From contig NZ_JACJPV010000003.1 of assembly GCF_014696225.1 (NCBI RefSeq), forward strand, positions 104,190-136,189: a stretch of 32,000 bases of DNA, given 5' to 3'. This DNA comes from Anabaena sp. FACHB-1237. Lineage in GTDB: Bacteria; Cyanobacteriota; Cyanobacteriia; Cyanobacteriales; Nostocaceae. A program made the translations under genes and the position numbers. Shown here piece after piece: positions 6,091 to 15,285 of this stretch (position 1 is the stretch's first letter; each line of letters opens with the position of its first letter). The notes under the pieces are model-generated. The model made no database searches. It was not told where the DNA came from and saw only the letters and a program-made list of their open reading frames with translations.

Positions 6091-6776
6091 GGACTCTAAA
6101 TCTCCTAAAATTAATGGATTGAGAGATGTCTAGATAAATACTAATTTTTGGGATCAATGTTTAATTCAGATTGCTTGTGTTTACAAGCGTGCAATTATGA
6201 GAAACAGATAGGAATTTATGAGAAACTAGCTAACTGGTTTGTTTTGCTGGTTTATGCAACTTCTGTCTGTTGTTTGACCCCTACAGTTTATGTTTATACA
6301 ATGTCTTTGGGTCATTGTTTGTTACAAATTATGAATAAATAAGATGCTGTAATAATAAATCCCTCAAATCCTTTACATATAAGGCATAGAGATGATAAAA
6401 ATCTCAGTTTTTCGTTACATAACTTTACAATAATTGTAAAGAATCAGAAATTTTCATAGTTTAATATTATTTTTATAATTGCTGTAAGCCTTATCATGAT
6501 TGCGTTTGATCCAGTTTGTTGTATCTGTATTGATTGCTAAATTTGTCAAGGTTTGTAAACTTTATCTTTCTTAATTTTTGGAAAAAATTTGAAAAAAATT
6601 TTTACAATATCCCCCTAGAGGGCATCCCAGTGAATAAAAATCTTTATGCACAGTTTAGCAAGGATCTGAAATATTTTAAGGAAATTTTAAGAATTAGGAG
6701 ATCAAGTTTATACCTTGCAAATATGTTATCCGTGTTATATATTTGATGATATATAACCTAATTAACAGTATTGTAT

Positions 6777-7097
6777 ATGGCAAATAAGCAATTAGTTGAG
6801 TTCGCTTTAGATAGCGGCACTATTTTGGTAGAAGTTGAAGAATCGGTAGATATAGCTATTGAGAGAGTTGCTTTACCATCTGGGCGAGAAATTGCTAAAG
6901 CACAAAAGTCTTTTGAGGAAGCCATAGATAATATTAAGCCATTGGTAACCAATATTGCTAATAAGTTTCAAGACTTAGAACCAAAAGAAATGGAAGTTAA
7001 GTTTGGCATCAAACTAAGTGCTGATGCAGGTGCGTTTATAACTTCTGTAGGTGGGGAAGTTAATTTTGAGATTACGGTGAAGTGGAGTAAAGATTAG
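6777..7097 (+). CDS. Trypco2-like (trypsin-co-occurring domain 2) small protein
   Basis: About 106 aa counted from the ATG at 6777 (the ORF track starts at a TTG at 6771). The C-terminal motif EVKFGIKLSADAGAFITSVGGEVNFEITVKW matches my memory of the Trypco2 / CU044_2847-type family. Its stop lies 13 nt before the trypsin-like protease gene. Confidence 0.7.
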   Translation: MANKQLVEFALDSGTILVEVEESVDIAIERVALPSGREIAKAQKSFEEAIDNIKPLVTNIANKFQDLEPKEMEVKFGIKLSADAGAFITSVGGEVNFEITVKWSKD

Positions 7098-7110
7098 ACT
7101 CGTAGATTTT

Positions 7111-7980
7111 ATGTCAAATGAAAATTACTTTCAGGTCTTTAAAAGTGCGATCGCTCGCATTTATAATCAAAACGGTAAAGTTGTTGGTGCTGGTTTTTTA
7201 GTAAGTCAGTACCATTTTCTTACCTGCGCTCATGTGGTGACAGCAGCTTTAAGTATTGTTACCAGCACACAACAATCACCAGATGGAATTATAGAGGTTG
7301 ATTTTCCCCTCATTGCACCTGGGCAAAAAGTAAAAGCCAAAGTTGTATTTTGGCAACCTGTCAACCCAGGACAAAGTAAGGAAGATATTGCCGGACTACA
7401 CATACAGGATACTCTACCAACAGGAGTGAGTCCTGTAAAACTTGTCACCACATCAGATTATTGGCAACATAAATTCCGCATCTTTGGCTTTCCCCAAGGA
7501 CATGATGCTGGTGTTTGGGCTGACGGTGAACTGCGTGATATTCAAGCTACACGCTGGATACAGATAGAAGCCATTAAAGTTCCTGGGTATCAAATTGAAC
7601 CTGGTTTTAGTGGATCTCCTGTGTGGGATGAATCATTACAGGGAGTTGTGGGAATGGCTGTGGCCGCAGAGAAAAAGCGAGAGAATGTGAAAGCGGCATT
7701 TATGATGCCTACAACAGTGTTAGTGGAAACTTGGGATTTTTTAAATCAAACTGTTGAACAACAAGCAATAAATTCGTTTCCTTCTTTAAGTCGAGTCCAA
7801 GAAATTAAAGCTAAGGAATTGAACAAAAGATTAGTAATTTTAGAAGGCGATTATGAAGCAGTTTACAACCAATTGAATTATACAGAAAATGCCGAAAGTC
7901 GTAATAATTTACAACGACAATTAAATAGAATTGAACAGGATATGAATAAGATTGTCGAACAGTTAAAAATGATCAAGTGA
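7111..7980 (+). CDS. Trypsin-like (S1/chymotrypsin fold) serine protease with a C-terminal helical adaptor tail
   Basis: 289 aa. Catalytic triad contexts are LTCAHVV (His), EDIAGLHI (Asp) and EPGFSGSPVWD (Ser). The last ~65 aa are heptad-like and helical (LNKRLVILEGDYEAVYNQLNYTENAESRNNLQRQLNRIEQDMNKIVEQLK). Confidence 0.85.
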   Translation: MSNENYFQVFKSAIARIYNQNGKVVGAGFLVSQYHFLTCAHVVTAALSIVTSTQQSPDGIIEVDFPLIAPGQKVKAKVVFWQPVNPGQSKEDIAGLHIQDTLPTGVSPVKLVTTSDYWQHKFRIFGFPQGHDAGVWADGELRDIQATRWIQIEAIKVPGYQIEPGFSGSPVWDESLQGVVGMAVAAEKKRENVKAAFMMPTTVLVETWDFLNQTVEQQAINSFPSLSRVQEIKAKELNKRLVILEGDYEAVYNQLNYTENAESRNNLQRQLNRIEQDMNKIVEQLKMIK

Positions 7981-8175
7981 TCACCATTTTAAGTGATAAA
8001 ATAAAACAGACATGATATTTTACACCCTGCTTCAAAATCTTCCTAGTGTTTTATTTGAAATTCTAAAAGAGGATTAATTTGGTGAAAACAGCAGATGCAG
8101 AAAACAGTCGTGATCTTTTAGAATTACTTTTAGAATTAGTAGAGAGAATGCTGATTTACAAATTTTCATCTATTT

Positions 8176-8204
8176 GTAGGGGTTTAGCAATCTTAAACCC
8201 CTAC
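8176..8204 (+). other. Strong hairpin (11-bp stem, 7-nt loop) between the protease and iSTAND-like genes
   Basis: gtaggggttta-gcaatct-taaacccctac read directly. No T-tract follows, so this is not a canonical intrinsic terminator. Confidence 0.6.
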
Positions 8205-8243
8205 TTATAGAATCAAATAATTAAACAATTTTGAGTATAAATT

Positions 8244-9344
8244 ATGGAGATTTTTTATAACATGAAAAAAGCTGACAATATCAGAATTAAAAAGTTAGAA
8301 GAAGAATTTAATCAGAAGAAAAAAGATTACGAAGATACTTGTGACAAATTAAATGAAACCTACGATCCTGAAATCAAAAATAAACTAAATTTAAAAAAAG
8401 ATCGTCTTGAAAGAGAAATGCAAGAAAAGGAGGACGAAATAGAAAAACTAAAATCCTCTACTTCCTATAAAGATGTTACTGAAAAACCAATTTCTCCCTA
8501 TTTAACAATTTTATGTAACCGCACAGAACAAAAATCTCAAATAGAAGAAGAATATAAAAAATTTAAACAGCAAAATTCATATCGTTCCTTGGTTTTTGTC
8601 GTTCATGGTGATGAAAAACAATCTCATGAATCCTTTTTAATTCGGATGCAAGAGTTTATCCTTCCCAAATCAATAGAATCTATATCATACAGATTTAGAA
8701 AACATTTCCTAGAATGGCCTTTAAAATTTGATAATCTCAGAAATCGCTTATTGAAAAATCTATATGAAAATATTTTTAAAAATACGGATGTTTCTCACGA
8801 TAAAATTAAAGATTATTTTATTCAATCATCTAGTGAAGAGTTGATTTTTTATACTGTTATCACAACTAAAAATTGGCAAGAACAAGGATTTAAAATTCTG
8901 GATGAACTATTAAATTTTTGGCAATGGTTGTATAATGAAAATATCATAGAAAAACAAGTAATTATCTGTGTTTTAATTAAATACAAAAATGATGGTAAAA
9001 AAATTAATATAATAATTGAATGGATTAAATCTATCTTCAATTTTAAAAGTCATCATATAACTAATAAAAAAATCTATGCTCATCTAAAATCAATAAACAG
9101 AGACAATAAATTTAATGATTTATTGATCATTTCAGTAGAAGAACTAAATTCAATAACTATCCAAGATGTGAATAACTGGACACATCGTGAGATTATAGAT
9201 TTTATTGACAAAACTAAGATTAATAAATTAAATAGGAAAATTAACCAAATATTTCATGATTGGAAAAAACAAAATTCATCGGAATCAATTCCTATGATGG
9301 AATTAGAGGAACATTTGTCAAAATTACTAGAGGAATTAACATGA
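8244..9344 (+). CDS. Coiled-coil adaptor + P-loop-less STAND-like (iSTAND-type) protein
   Basis: 366 aa. The N-terminal ~75 aa are helical and alignable to the protease tail (DYEDTCDKLNETYDPEIKNKLNLKKDRLEREM). Next comes LCNRTEQKSQIEEEYKKF...SLVFVVHGDEKQSHESFLIRMQEFILP, the strand-loop-helix position where STAND NTPases carry a Walker A. No GxxxxGK[ST] motif occurs anywhere in the protein. The stop overlaps the next gene's start (ATGA). Confidence 0.6.
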   Translation: MEIFYNMKKADNIRIKKLEEEFNQKKKDYEDTCDKLNETYDPEIKNKLNLKKDRLEREMQEKEDEIEKLKSSTSYKDVTEKPISPYLTILCNRTEQKSQIEEEYKKFKQQNSYRSLVFVVHGDEKQSHESFLIRMQEFILPKSIESISYRFRKHFLEWPLKFDNLRNRLLKNLYENIFKNTDVSHDKIKDYFIQSSSEELIFYTVITTKNWQEQGFKILDELLNFWQWLYNENIIEKQVIICVLIKYKNDGKKINIIIEWIKSIFNFKSHHITNKKIYAHLKSINRDNKFNDLLIISVEELNSITIQDVNNWTHREIIDFIDKTKINKLNRKINQIFHDWKKQNSSESIPMMELEEHLSKLLEELT

Positions 9345-10327
9345 AATTACCAATTTACACAGGTACAGGAAACCGTCAAGGAGAACTACCCAAACAACTT
9401 CCAAATTCTTCCCTTTCTCGATTACTCAATCCAGAAAAATACATTGCTGATCAAGGTTTGCGAGATGCTTGTAATGTGGCATTATTATTAGGACAACCTT
9501 TATTACTCACTGGAGAACCAGGAACAGGAAAAACTCAATTAGCTTATAGTCTCGCTTGGGAATTGGGACTTGGTGAAGTTTTAAAATTTGAAACTAAATC
9601 TACTAGTATTGCGCGGGATTTGTTCTATACTTATGATGCCTTAAAGCGATTTCAAAATGTACAAACTGGCTTTGCTTCCACTCAAATTTTAGATTACATC
9701 ACTTATCAAGCATTAGGAAAAGCAATTTTATGTACTCGCAATTTGGAAGAAGTTAAAGAATTTTTACCATTAGAATTTTCTGATAATGGACAGAAGCGTT
9801 CTGTAGTTTTAATTGATGAAATTGATAAAGCACCCCGTGATTTTCCCAATGATTTACTTAATGAATTGGAATTGATGTATTTTCGGATTCCAGAATTAGG
9901 TAATCAAAAAATAGAAGCAGATGCAAAATTGCAACCAATTGTAATTATTACTAGCAATTCGGAAAAAGATTTACCAGATGCTTTTCTGCGACGTTGTATT
10001 TATTATCATCTGCCTTTTCCTGATAATGAACGACTGAAGAATATTATTGCTAATCGGTTAGGAATGAATATTAATGATCCCTTTTTGCAATCAGCTATTA
10101 GTTTATTTGAAAAATTACGTAAAAGTGGTTTGAACAAGCAACCTGGAACTGCTGAATTATTAAGCTGGATTGTTGCTTTACAAAGGTTTAGTAGTATTCC
10201 AGATAATCTTTTAATTCAACTTAATGCTGATTTAATTAACTCTACTCTCAGTAGCTTAATTAAAACTCAAAATGATCAAGAAAAAGCTAAAAAGGTTGTA
10301 GAACAATGGATAAAAGAACAGAAATAG
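9341..10327 (+). CDS. MoxR-class AAA+ ATPase
   Basis: Walker A is LLLTGEPGTGKTQLA and Walker B is VVLIDEIDKAP. Sensor-1 is IVIITSN, and an Arg-rich FLRRC follows. The start is taken as the ATG at 9341, which overlaps the upstream stop (ATGA), rather than the ORF-track start at 9260. Confidence 0.85.
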   Translation: MKLPIYTGTGNRQGELPKQLPNSSLSRLLNPEKYIADQGLRDACNVALLLGQPLLLTGEPGTGKTQLAYSLAWELGLGEVLKFETKSTSIARDLFYTYDALKRFQNVQTGFASTQILDYITYQALGKAILCTRNLEEVKEFLPLEFSDNGQKRSVVLIDEIDKAPRDFPNDLLNELELMYFRIPELGNQKIEADAKLQPIVIITSNSEKDLPDAFLRRCIYYHLPFPDNERLKNIIANRLGMNINDPFLQSAISLFEKLRKSGLNKQPGTAELLSWIVALQRFSSIPDNLLIQLNADLINSTLSSLIKTQNDQEKAKKVVEQWIKEQK

Positions 10328-13182
10328 AAGATAACTTAGATTGGCTAAATCCTGATGTTTTGCTAGAGTTTATTGATAATCTGAGAAACGCAGGTTATAA
10401 TATCGGCATATCTCAATATATTGCAGCACAGGATTTAATTTTGATTCTGACTTCTCAGGGTGAAAATTTGGATAATCCAGAAAATTTGAGAAATTTACTA
10501 GCACCAATATTTTGCAGTTCACCAACTGAACAGGAACAATTTAACCAGTATTTTGATAGCTCTTTTAAATCTGTTCATAAAATTAGTGATTTACAAGAAG
10601 AAACAACACTAGAAAACCCAATATCTTTAGAAGATGAGAAAAAACTAAAATCTCGTTCTCTTTTGTTAATCTTAATTTTGTTAATCTTAATAGTTATTGT
10701 TGCATCAGGAATCCCTTTATTTTTAAAATTCAGTGGTTCTGATAATAATACACCAGGTACAGGTTCTACTAAAACACCAACACCTATTCCTATACCATCA
10801 ACATTACCAACAACAAAACCTACCAATATACCAGATAAAACTTCTATAAGTTGTACTGATAACAAACCCCCAAATCCTATTAACTGGCCAAGAGAAATAG
10901 CATTTTTCTTAACTCCTGCTACTGTGTTTTTTATTATTAGAATGTGGTGGTTTTGGTTAAGTCGTCAGTTGTTTTTACGACGTTATGGAACTACAACTCA
11001 ACCTGAATTACAGAATATTTCTATTGCTGATTTTGATATTGAGCAAGAATTATTCCCAACAATGATTTTTATGCAAATCGCTCGCAATCTCAGACGACGT
11101 ATTTCCATTCCTTCTAATGAATTAGATATAGAAAAAACTATTGATGCAACTTTGCGTCAAGGAGGATATTTAAAACCAATATATCGTAATTATCAAATAC
11201 TTCCAGAATATTTGTTTTTAGTTAATCGTACCAGTTTTCAAGATCATCAAGCTCAATTTATAGAAGAAATAATTAAGCGTCTTAAACAAGAAAATGTTTT
11301 AATTACCAGTTATTTTTTTGATGATGATCCTTTAATTTGTTTTCCTAGTCAGGGAGAAAGTTCTCCTCTCAGACTGGAGGAAATTATCCGTAAATATCAT
11401 CAGCATTATCTAATTTTAGTTTCAGATACAGAGAATTTTTTTAGTATTATTAGTGGTGAATTAGAACCTTGGGTAAGTGAATTAATAAATTGGCAAAGTC
11501 GAGCTTTTCTTACTCCCAAACCCATAAATAATTGGGGTTATCAAGAGTTTCAAATAGCTCAACAATTCATCATTTTACCTGCTACACCAGCAGGGTTACA
11601 GTTATTTAGCCTATTTAGCCAAAAATCCTGGAATCAAGATACATTGAAGTTTTTATTTTTGCAGGAGACAAGTTCAGCAATACCCATACCACAAACGCTG
11701 CGACTTCAATCTTATCGCTGGTTACAACGTAATTCTCCAGAACCGGAAAAAATTGCAACAATGCTAATTTCTCTACGGGAATATTTAGGTGATGATAGTT
11801 TTTATTGGTTTTGTGCTTGTGCTGTTTTTCCTGAGTTGCAATGGAATATAACTATTTATTTGGGTAATGTGCTGAAAACAGAGTTAGGAAAATCTCTTTT
11901 AGAGGTTGATTCTTTGACTACTTTAGCTCGTTTACCTTGGTTTCGTTCTGGTTATATTCCTGACTGGTTGCGTGTTTATTTGATTAAAGAATTGACTCAG
12001 AAACAAGAACAGGAAATTAGAACGGCGCTAAAAAATTTACTCAATCAGGTTAATGATACTTCTGAAAATAAGTTGAAGTTATCAATAGTCAAAACATCTG
12101 TAAAAACTATTGCTGAAGATGGTCTATTAAAAGATTACCTGTTTCTGGATTTTATGACTAAACCATCTTTACTTGATTTTAAAGTACCAGAAAAGTTTAA
12201 TAAGTTATTACCAAAATCCAAAAATCAAGGTTCTAAAAAAACACAAATCAACCGCAGACGATTTTTGCAGATGCTTGGGTTAGGAAGTGCAGGTTTTGTT
12301 GCAGCAGTAGCAGGTAATCAGGTTTTGAAACCGAAAGAACCTACAATAGCTTCTCGTAATTGCAAGTTTGAGGTATTAACAGTAAATTCTCAAGGACAAA
12401 TTATCTCCCGTGTCTTTAGTCAAGCAACGTTTTTTACTGAAGATTTGGGTAATGATATTACTTTGGAGATGGTGGAGATTCCTGGTGGTTCTTTTAATAT
12501 GGGTTCACCAGAGTCAGAAAAGGGTTGGAATAATAATGAAAGTCCACAACATGAGGTAAATGTACCTGCTTTTGCTATGGGTAAATTTGCGGTGACTCAG
12601 GAACAGTATCAACAAGTTATGGGCGAGAATCCTTCTGGGTTTAAAGGAGCAAAACGTCCTGTAGAAACCGTTTCTTGGAATGATGCGGACAAGTTTTGTA
12701 AGAAGCTGAATCAAATTACTCAAAAAACTGGACGTAGTTACAGATTACCCAGTGAGGCAGAATGGGAATATGCTTGTCGTGCAGGGACGACTACACCCTT
12801 TCATTTTGGGGAAACGATTACCAGTGACTTAGCTAATTATGACGGCACTGTGACTTATGCTTCTGAGGCACAAGGTATATATAGAAAACAGACAACAGAT
12901 GTCGGTAGTTTTGCGCCTAATAGCTTTGGTTTGTATGATATGCATGGTAATGTTTGGGAATGGTGTCAAGATAATTGGCATGATAATTATAAAAATGCGC
13001 CTAAAAATGGTAGTGCTTGGACTAGCCAAAGCGATGATAGACAAGTGCTGCGTGGTGGTTCGTGGTTCAGCCTTCCTGATAACTGCCGTTCTGCCATCCG
13101 CAGCAACTACTTCAACCGCGATAACAGGAGCATCGATTTCGGCTTTCGCGTTGTTTGTCTTGTCGTAGCGAGGACTTTTTAG
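10306..13182 (+). CDS. DGR target protein: CoxE-like N-terminal module, two TM helices flanking a Pro/Thr-rich loop, a large central domain, an internal Tat-signal-like TM segment, and a C-terminal FGE-sulfatase (C-type-lectin fold) domain carrying the VR
   Basis: 958 aa. The start overlaps the MoxR gene by 22 nt. The N-terminus LLEFIDNLRNAGYNIGISQYIAAQDL...EQFNQYFDSSF resembles the helical N-module of CoxE-type partners of MoxR/CoxD ATPases. TM segments are SLLLILILLILIVIVASGIPLFL and IAFFLTPATVFFIIRMWWFWL. An internal NRRRFLQMLGLGSAGFVAAVAG is also present. FGE-sulfatase motifs are IPGGSFNMGSP, ETVSWNDADKFC, LPSEAEWEYACRAGT, YDMHGNVWEWCQD and RGGSW...GFRVV. Confidence 0.85.
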   Translation: MDKRTEIEDNLDWLNPDVLLEFIDNLRNAGYNIGISQYIAAQDLILILTSQGENLDNPENLRNLLAPIFCSSPTEQEQFNQYFDSSFKSVHKISDLQEETTLENPISLEDEKKLKSRSLLLILILLILIVIVASGIPLFLKFSGSDNNTPGTGSTKTPTPIPIPSTLPTTKPTNIPDKTSISCTDNKPPNPINWPREIAFFLTPATVFFIIRMWWFWLSRQLFLRRYGTTTQPELQNISIADFDIEQELFPTMIFMQIARNLRRRISIPSNELDIEKTIDATLRQGGYLKPIYRNYQILPEYLFLVNRTSFQDHQAQFIEEIIKRLKQENVLITSYFFDDDPLICFPSQGESSPLRLEEIIRKYHQHYLILVSDTENFFSIISGELEPWVSELINWQSRAFLTPKPINNWGYQEFQIAQQFIILPATPAGLQLFSLFSQKSWNQDTLKFLFLQETSSAIPIPQTLRLQSYRWLQRNSPEPEKIATMLISLREYLGDDSFYWFCACAVFPELQWNITIYLGNVLKTELGKSLLEVDSLTTLARLPWFRSGYIPDWLRVYLIKELTQKQEQEIRTALKNLLNQVNDTSENKLKLSIVKTSVKTIAEDGLLKDYLFLDFMTKPSLLDFKVPEKFNKLLPKSKNQGSKKTQINRRRFLQMLGLGSAGFVAAVAGNQVLKPKEPTIASRNCKFEVLTVNSQGQIISRVFSQATFFTEDLGNDITLEMVEIPGGSFNMGSPESEKGWNNNESPQHEVNVPAFAMGKFAVTQEQYQQVMGENPSGFKGAKRPVETVSWNDADKFCKKLNQITQKTGRSYRLPSEAEWEYACRAGTTTPFHFGETITSDLANYDGTVTYASEAQGIYRKQTTDVGSFAPNSFGLYDMHGNVWEWCQDNWHDNYKNAPKNGSAWTSQSDDRQVLRGGSWFSLPDNCRSAIRSNYFNRDNRSIDFGFRVVCLVVARTF
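13042..13172 (+). repeat. DGR variable repeat (VR) at the 3' end of the target gene
   Basis: 131 nt homologous to TR 14857-14984. All substitutions map to adenines of the TR, and there is one extra in-frame codon. It encodes [43 protein letters not shown]. Confidence 0.93.
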
Positions 13183-13420: not shown

Positions 13421-13783
13421 ATGAGCGAATTATCCATTATCCAAAAAACCTACGATTTGATTAAATGGTATGTACCAATTATCAATCGTCTTCCTAAAGA
13501 GCATAAATTTACACTAGGTGATAGAATGATCAATAGTTTATATGAACTACTAGATGGGTTAATTATTGCTCGGTATGCTAAGGAAAAATTGACAAAATTA
13601 GAGGTGTTAAATAGTCAGTTAGATATTCTCCGCTATCAAACGCGATTATTATTAGATTTTCAATTAATTCCTGGTCATCGTTATGAATATGTGGGAAAAT
13701 CAATTAATGATATTGGTATGGAATTAGGTGGCTGGATTAAAGAACAAAATAAAAGCAAGAGTATTAATCTTAAAACAAAATGA
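13421..13783 (+). CDS. avd: DGR accessory variability determinant (Avd, four-helix-bundle protein)
   Basis: 120 aa. The motifs [30 protein letters not shown]...[11 protein letters not shown]...[10 protein letters not shown] match the Avd/four-helix-bundle family pattern. The stop overlaps the RT start (ATGA). Confidence 0.85.
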
Positions 13784-14838
13784 AACGATACGGTAATCTT
13801 TATTCTCAAATTGTTGATTTTGAAAATATCCTCACAGCCAGCAAAAAAGCCCAAAAAAGTAAGCGATTTCGCCCAAATGTTCTGGAATTTAATTATAATT
13901 TAGAAAGTAACCTCAACAAATTACAACAAGATTTAGTCAACAAAATTTATCAACCAGGTGAATATAGAACATTTTATATTAAAGAACCAAAAACTCGGAT
14001 GATTTCTGCTGCACCATACCGAGATAGGATAGTTCACCATGTCTTATGTAATATTATTATGCCTTTAATTGAACCAACATTTATTGGTGATTCCTATGCA
14101 AATCGTCAGGGTTTTGGTACTCATCGTGCTTTACGTCGGTTTGTAAAGTTTGCTCGTTCTAATCGCTATGTTCTTCAATGTGATATTGAGAAATATTTTC
14201 CTAGTATTGACCATGAAATTCTCAAGATTTTGTTACGACGTAAATTAAAATGTCCTGATACATTGTGGTTAATAGATACTTTAATTGATAATAGTAATGA
14301 ACAATTTTCAGTAGTTGACCATTTTCCAGGAGATAAATTATTAGAACCATTACAAAGACGACGCGGTTTACCCATTGGTAATTTAACCAGTCAGTTTTTT
14401 GCTAATGTTTATCTCAACTATTTTGATCATTTTATTAAAGAACAGCTAAAAATTGAGAAATATTTACGTTATGTGGATGATTTTGCTTTGTTTTCTAATG
14501 ATAGGGAATTGTTAGTTGATGCTAGATATGCTATTGAAGAACACTTAGCAGGATTAAGGCTTAAAATTCATCCTACAAAAAGTCAATTATTTGAAACAAA
14601 ACATGGTGCTAATTTTTTAGGTTTTCGTATTTTACCAAACCAGATTCGAGTCCGCACAGAAAATTTGCGTCGGGCAAAACGCAGAATAAAAAAAATGCAG
14701 GATGACTATATTGATGGTAAGATTAGTTTAGAAAAAGTATCCCAATCAATTCAAAGTTGGTTTGCTCATTTAGAGCATGGGGATACGTGGCAATTAAAAC
14801 AACAGCTATTTGCTACTCTCACTTGGATGAGAGGGTAA
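13780..14838 (+). CDS. DGR-type reverse transcriptase
   Basis: 352 aa with RT motifs [28 protein letters not shown] (the DGR-typical [ILV]GxxxSQ), YVDDF (YxDD catalytic), KIHPTKSQ and FLGFRI. It lies between avd and the TR. Confidence 0.92.
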
Positions 14839-14856
14839 AGAAGGGATGGGCAGCCC

Positions 14857-14984
14857 CAAGTGCTGCGTGGTGGTTCGTGGAACAACAATCCTGAAAACTG
14901 CCGTTCTGCCAACCGCAACAACAACAACCGCGATAACAGGAACAACAATATCGGCTTTCGCGTTGTTTGTCTTGTCGTAGCGAG
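14857..14984 (+). repeat. DGR template repeat (TR)
   Basis: 128 nt starting 19 nt after the RT stop. It is rich in AAC/AAT codons in the VR reading frame (AAC AAC AAT ... AAC CGC AAC AAC AAC AAC ... AAC AAC AAT) and identical to the VR at every non-A position. Confidence 0.93.
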
Positions 14985-15285
14985 CGCTCTTTTGTACCAG
15001 AACTGACGGATGTGAATGCGTTAGGCGTGTCAAAGAAGAGTCCAGACCTGTTCCTGTGATGTTGGTGACAACATCCGAAAATCAAACTCGGTGGGGTAGC
15101 TTAGTAAGTTTGCTGAAAGGTTGCTTCACCCTCTAAATAGGGCTTGCTGAATAAATGTAAAACCTAGATAAATCAAGGGTTTGAGGTGGAAAATAAGGAA
15201 ATAGATGCAAGATTTTCAAGGGGGAGACTCTGAAAAGCGTGCATTTTGGGTTGAATAAATCACAAAATTGAGGGATCGCAGATAG

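Follow-up and report, generated by a model that had tools for sequence, protein, structure and literature searches.

Matching EAD9 domains on a trypsin-like protease and an adjacent iSTAND protein in a probable MoxR ternary conflict system of Anabaena sp. FACHB-1237

In the genome of Anabaena sp. FACHB-1237 (GCF_014696225.1), we analyzed a stretch of 32,000 nucleotides of contig NZ_JACJPV010000003.1 (positions 104,190 to 136,189), hereafter the window, whose own numbering is used for all coordinates. The analysis centers on two consecutive genes, one for a trypsin-like serine protease and the other for a protein with an iSTAND domain, an inactive relative of the STAND NTPases. The protease ends in, and the iSTAND protein begins with, a copy of EAD9, one of the effector-associated domains (EADs). 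The features on which the argument depends are these:

7111..7980, forward strand: trypsin-like serine protease with C-terminal EAD9, 289 aa (Trypsin_2, E = 3.9e-14; trypsin domain at about residues 14-183)
7789..7974, forward strand: EAD9 copy 1, protease residues 227-288 (PF19962, 77.3 bits, E = 7.7e-22, profile positions 1-62 of 62)
8244..9344, forward strand: EAD9-iSTAND protein, 366 aa (iSTAND, PF19995, E = 3.9e-15; domain at residues 90-245)
8271..8450, forward strand: EAD9 copy 2, residues 10-69 of the iSTAND protein (PF19962, 34.2 bits, E = 2.2e-8, profile positions 3-62)

A preliminary description of this DNA, made from the letters alone, had proposed that the protease tail and the N-terminus of the STAND-like protein share a homologous helical module, on the basis of a gapless match between two segments of 32 residues. 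The match was reproduced, with 12 of 32 positions identical between protease residues 247-278 and iSTAND-protein residues 28-59, and by BLASTP the ungapped alignment stretches to 67 residues with 17 identities and 39 positives (E = 2e-5 with composition adjustment). The module also proved to have a name, since both copies exceed the curated gathering cut-off of EAD9 (25 bits), reaching 80.8 bits for the protease copy and 38.8 bits for the iSTAND copy in the genome-level scan. The 67-residue segments give a Smith-Waterman score of 84, while 20,000 rounds in which both sequences were shuffled gave 31.2 +/- 5.8 with a maximum of 67, none reaching 84; for the 32-residue segments the score is 60 against 21.1 +/- 4.3, again attained by no shuffle. 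The likeness is therefore not an artefact of coiled-coil composition, a doubt that the preliminary description had itself raised. Among the window's open frames of at least 100 aa, the protease itself excepted, the iSTAND frame scores 84 against the protease tail and the next best scores 46.

Both copies are small, non-enzymatic and all-helical in the single-chain AlphaFold2 models, which were built with 16-row alignments of relatives and assign the two domains pLDDT values of 81 to 95. In the protease, EAD9 consists of a helix at residues 228-256, a turn at 257-260 and a second helix at 261-288 (pLDDT 81-94), within a whole-protein model of mean pLDDT 80. In the iSTAND protein the corresponding elements are a helix at 2-38, a turn at 39-41 and a helix at 42-71 (pLDDT 87-95); outside EAD9 this model falls to a pLDDT of about 50, and that part was not used. 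An N-x-T motif common to both copies marks the site of the turn in both models. A search of PDB sequences returned no solved structure related to EAD9, giving matches at chance level only (E >= 0.16). The protease tail (227-288) and the iSTAND N-terminus (10-69) are paralogous copies of EAD9, a two-helix hairpin of about 60 residues.

The genome, which is 99.98% complete, contains exactly 2 EAD9 copies, 1 iSTAND and 1 Trypco1 domain. Relaxing the Pfam search to E = 1 revealed no further EAD9, and neither did a local hidden Markov model of 51 EAD9 sequences run on all six-frame open frames of the genome, where the next best match had E = 0.039. The search for the module on other effectors, proposed in the preliminary description, thus returned no additional EAD9-tagged effector. 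Since the whole-genome scans yield these two copies only, EAD9 forms a private, strictly one-to-one pair in this genome.

From 301 genomes of the same order, EAD9 matches were found in 45, with the cut-off exceeded in 31. Adjacent pairs occur 22 times in 29 loci of these other genomes, which makes 23 pairs with the window's own, each consisting of a gene with EAD9 at the C-terminus of its product and, immediately downstream, one with EAD9 at the N-terminus. The arrangement described for effector-associated domains, in which core component and effector carry one copy each and are encoded side by side, is therefore found at the window locus and in the 22 other pairs. The downstream partners that were scanned (about 325-370 aa) contain iSTAND in 16 of 16 cases, and their upstream partners carry trypsin (13), TIR (2) or CHAT (1) domains. 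In other pairs, PNP phosphorylase, CHAT or trypsin-EAD1 proteins are linked to VMAP or nSTAND1 cores. Over 60 core columns, partners in the 23 pairs are on average 47% identical and non-partners 22%, a mean for partners that none of 10,000 permutations attained; the true partner takes the top rank in 12 and 14 of the 23 cases, counts that overstate independence since the loci are interrelated.

Two related genomes encode a protease and iSTAND joined in one chain. At the orthologous locus of a genome of the same family (G182), the Trypco1 gene is followed by a gene for a 574-aa protein composed of trypsin, a single EAD9 and iSTAND (L041 2561-4285), then by the MoxR gene and the gene of a 1041-aa FGE-sulfatase protein. 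The single EAD9 of this fusion covers profile positions 1-57, and its second helix is about seven residues shorter than an in-register join of two EAD9 copies would give. At the DNA level, window positions 6718-7949 are 84% identical to this locus, and the alignment ends inside the EAD9 of the protease. In G021, another relative, the domain joined directly to iSTAND is a caspase. In this analysis the fusions are the strongest available evidence that protease and iSTAND would belong to one complex and, because of them, we suggest that the EAD9 pair may stand in for a covalent link.

Some further loci differ from this pattern. In genome G313, a glycine-rich N-terminal module of 38 residues is common to a CHAT protease and its iSTAND neighbor (L044 360-1133 and 1243-2460), with 61% identity (E = 5e-12) and without a Pfam match; it may be a different, non-helical matching module with the same role, and L047 offers a weaker case. 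In genome G214, the protease-EAD9 gene (L014 580-1692) has the C-terminal half of the trypsin tandemly duplicated internally and its N-terminal half disrupted; it adjoins a reverse transcriptase of the group II intron type and appears degraded.

Around the pair, the window contains the following genes and elements:

6771..7097, forward strand: Trypco1 protein (trypsin-co-occurring domain 1), 108 aa (PF19493, 89.1 bits, E = 3e-25)
7981..8243, forward strand: 263-nt spacer, what internal deletion has left of a DUF2887 gene (compared with genome G114 by blastn and MAFFT)
8176..8204, no strand assigned: perfect palindromic hairpin of 29 nt, GTAGGGGTTTAGCAATCTTAAACCCCTAC, a copy of a dispersed repeat
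9341..10327, forward strand: MoxR-type AAA+ ATPase (Pfam AAA_5 and AAA; NCBIfam MadB family AAA ATPase, E = 3.5e-27)
10306..13182, forward strand: 958-aa membrane protein with a C-terminal FGE-sulfatase domain of C-type lectin fold (PF03781, E = 8.2e-60, residues 721-950)
13421..14992, forward strand: diversity-generating retroelement (DGR) cassette, with Avd at 13421-13783, reverse transcriptase at 13780-14838 and template repeat at 14857-14992

Judged by its genes, the locus is an iSTAND-type MoxR ternary conflict system consisting of Trypco1, trypsin-EAD9, EAD9-iSTAND, MoxR and a DGR-diversified FGE-sulfatase membrane protein. The protease keeps a candidate triad of H41, D92 and S167 within the motifs TCAHV, EDIAGL and GFSGSP. 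The product of 8244..9344 is an inactive STAND NTPase as expected for the core of such a system, with 57 bits to PF19995 (cut-off 24) and, at the Walker A position, HGDEKQSH, within a segment (VVHGDEKQSH) that has no GK[ST] motif. A MoxR-type AAA+ ATPase is encoded by the adjacent gene. Its likely start is the ATG at 9341, which forms an ATGA overlap with the iSTAND stop; a start at TTG 9260, given by the mechanical call of open reading frames (ORFs), is disfavored by this overlap and by the orthologue of G182, which begins MKLPIYTG. The 958-aa protein occupies the position of the vWA/effector-sensor component of the published system, and a variable C-terminal effector or sensor domain is found in it as the FGE-sulfatase domain together with the variable region and template repeat of the DGR. 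The variable region (13042-13180, at the 3' end of the 958-aa gene) and the template repeat are direct repeats with 87% identity, and Avd is recognized by NCBIfam DivGenRetAVD (E = 7.5e-42) and the reverse transcriptase by RVT_1 (E = 6.8e-25).

The 263-nt spacer with a strong hairpin, which the preliminary description placed between the protease and iSTAND genes, is indeed there, yet it is not a designed separator, being a decayed DUF2887 relic that carries a dispersed repeat. In G114, the orthologous protease-EAD9 gene is separated from its downstream neighbor by an intact gene for a 263-aa DUF2887 protein (PF11103, E = 1.9e-74). Compared with that arrangement, window positions 7981-8071 correspond to the G114 intergenic stretch plus the 5' end of the DUF2887 gene (its first 70 nt or so), 8072-8170 to an internal piece of the same gene (about 100 nt), and 8160-8305 to its 3' flank with the hairpin (as far as 8243 within the spacer) and the start of the next gene. 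Elsewhere in the Anabaena genome the DUF2887 family has nine other matches, five of them spanning the whole profile. The hairpin is present in both the minimum free energy and the centroid folds and is found at the same place in G114. In its own genome it has 23 strand matches with at most 3 mismatches (12 forward, 11 reverse) on many contigs, while the reversed control has 0. It was discarded as an intrinsic terminator, since the terminator scan did not call it and no T-run follows.

The gene next in line in G114 has taken a different form. It encodes a chimeric protein of 622 aa (L040 4104-5972) whose first 30 residues or so resemble helix 1 of the EAD9 of the window's iSTAND protein, followed by a second trypsin copy (89% nucleotide identity to the window protease) and then by VMAP-M1 and VMAP-C. 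The gene downstream of the chimera is on the opposite strand, and in the next 10 kb or so of L040 no ORF of MoxR or vWA-protein character was apparent, the ORFs being inspected without a Pfam scan.

We favor, with a probability of about 75%, the reading in which the two EAD9 hairpins pair and couple the protease to the rest of the system. The hairpins would bind one another in what is plausibly a four-helix bundle, and this pairing would dock the trypsin-like protease, the product of a gene of its own, onto a STAND scaffold that is catalytically dead. The state of the scaffold would be controlled by the MoxR ATPase together with the DGR-diversified membrane sensor, tying protease activity to the state of MoxR and sensor, and detection of an invader by the diversified sensor would trigger proteolysis. 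This reading starts from the identity of the domains, their predicted hairpin fold, the one-to-one pair, the recurrent adjacency, the partner-specific similarity in other loci and the natural fusion, which are observations; the contact between the EAD9 copies, the direction of signaling and the substrates of the protease are what we infer. The preliminary description had already interpreted the module as an adaptor, and this fits the comparative data on the recurrent C-terminal and N-terminal pairs, the closer likeness of partner copies and the trypsin-EAD9-iSTAND fusion.

Several results weigh against the pairing of the two hairpins or against the system assigned to it. The window's own pair is 25% identical over the 60 core columns and ranks 9th and 5th of 23, so that this locus by itself gives no sign of partner specificity. 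In the partner pairs that are most similar (L022, L028 and L026), the identical residues use the same codon in 40 of 48, 40 of 48 and 29 of 31 cases. Since the identical residues are mostly codon-identical, part of the partner similarity would come from gene conversion or recent duplication, and not from selection on the interface alone. The protease and iSTAND genes are parted here by the gene relic and the hairpin, while the open frames of the other pairs are contiguous or have at most about 50-100 nt between them. MoxR systems are usually paired with a vWA protein; in the 958-aa protein, Pfam searches of residues 1-115 and 220-650 with E allowed to reach 10 detected no vWA, nor did a comparison with PDB sequences, searches that a degenerate vWA could escape. 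In its orthologue in G182, likewise, FGE-sulfatase is the sole domain detected.

Other explanations of the pair were considered together with these points. Two charged, heptad-like helices could resemble each other by chance, as K, E, N, Q and L are abundant in both segments and the identity is merely 25-37%. This we regard as refuted by the profile, BLASTP and shuffle results: the observed score lies at z of about 9 and beyond all 20,000 shuffles, the BLASTP E-value stands at 2e-5, one curated profile is passed by both segments, and the turn motif and helix boundaries are common to both. It is also conceivable, but in our view unlikely, that the EAD9 copies do not bind mutually, each associating with itself (for example in a protease dimer) or binding a common third partner, for which MoxR, Trypco1 and the cytoplasmic part of the sensor protein are candidates. 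Helical hairpins frequently homo-oligomerize, the window's two copies resemble each other no more than non-partners do, partner similarity elsewhere is largely homogenization at the DNA level, and neither an experimental test of EAD9 binding nor EAD9 interaction data were found in the literature searched. However, a common third partner hardly explains the strict adjacency of effector tail and core head across many loci with differing effectors and cores. Moreover, in G182 one EAD9 copy is enough once protease and iSTAND are covalently joined, which fits a bridge made redundant by fusion.

Still less probable, in our judgment, is that the coupling is decaying at this locus, the DUF2887 gene having been inserted and then eroded while the copies drifted, so that the pair would be the fossil of an adaptor link. 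The relic with its repeat hairpin, in a place where other pairs have short gaps or none, agrees with this, as do the window's partner identity, which is near the bottom of the range for the 23 pairs, the rearranged chimera of the neighboring lineage G114 and the degraded protease of G214. On the other hand, none of the seven reading frames is broken, the protease retains its H/D/S motifs, both EAD9 copies are above the Pfam cut-off and confidently modeled, and the template repeat and variable region of the DGR still match.

As an addition to the docking of the protease by EAD9 pairing, we tentatively propose, as a possibility that we would not call probable, that adjacent EAD9 copies are direct DNA repeats besides being adaptors. 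Conversion between them would keep partners matched, recombination near or between them would collapse a split pair into a fused gene such as that of G182, and split and fused forms would interconvert; the window pair would have escaped homogenization. On the same idea, the EAD9 copies may attract insertions such as the DUF2887 gene.

The locus shows that the principle of EAD coupling is recoverable from sequence alone, and it adds no new kind of system. With a single pair of EAD9 copies and one each of iSTAND and Trypco1, the genome is a compact test case for the homotypic-adaptor hypothesis, and the natural fusion in the related genome offers a built-in comparison. The divergence of the pair, the spacer's origin in a decayed gene and the fusion seen in a relative are minor local details.

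Regarding known systems, the logic is the same as that of the death-fold adaptors (CARD, DD, DED and PYD) of the animal apoptosome and inflammasome, where a small helical module is present on a STAND-type scaffold and on a protease, which it is proposed to recruit through homotypic contact. The two differ in that the predicted fold of EAD9 is a hairpin of two helices and the death fold has six, with no homology detected between them.

The iSTAND MoxR-vWA system (PMC7159879, PMC10907252) has in common with the window an inactive STAND, a MoxR AAA+ ATPase and a large third protein that combines helices at its N-terminus, transmembrane segments and a DGR-diversified C-terminal FGE-sulfatase domain, in a host that is a filamentous cyanobacterium; the difference is that vWA went undetected in the window's third protein by Pfam and PDB sequence searches. 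In the sections of Kaur et al. (eLife 2020, PMC7159879) that deal with them, iSTAND ternary systems are concentrated in cyanobacteria, with FGS as the commonest effector domain there, and the genes of Trypco1 and Trypco2 adjoin those of trypsin-like peptidases. DGR-diversified sensors in such MoxR systems are discussed by Dore et al. (PNAS 2024, PMC10907252).

The closest counterpart is EAD coupling itself. In the part of their work devoted to EADs, Kaur, Burroughs, Iyer and Aravind (PMC7159879) describe EAD copies as divided between a core component and an effector or signaling enzyme, the latter usually encoded by an adjacent gene. They predict, by analogy with death-fold domains, that the copies bridge proteins homotypically, and EAD9 is named among the EADs recruiting signaling components such as peptidases. 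The adaptor interpretation given in the preliminary description agrees with this model, and the module is identified by Pfam as EAD9 in both proteins; physical contact between EAD9 copies is a prediction here as in the literature. The window has the same small, all-helical, non-enzymatic domain at the N-terminus of iSTAND and, in the product of the neighboring gene, at the C-terminus of a peptidase, and differs in nothing essential, its copies being unusually diverged and its genes, instead of abutting, being parted by the remains of a DUF2887 gene. The feature had been catalogued and described before, and the locus is an ordinary example of a known system.

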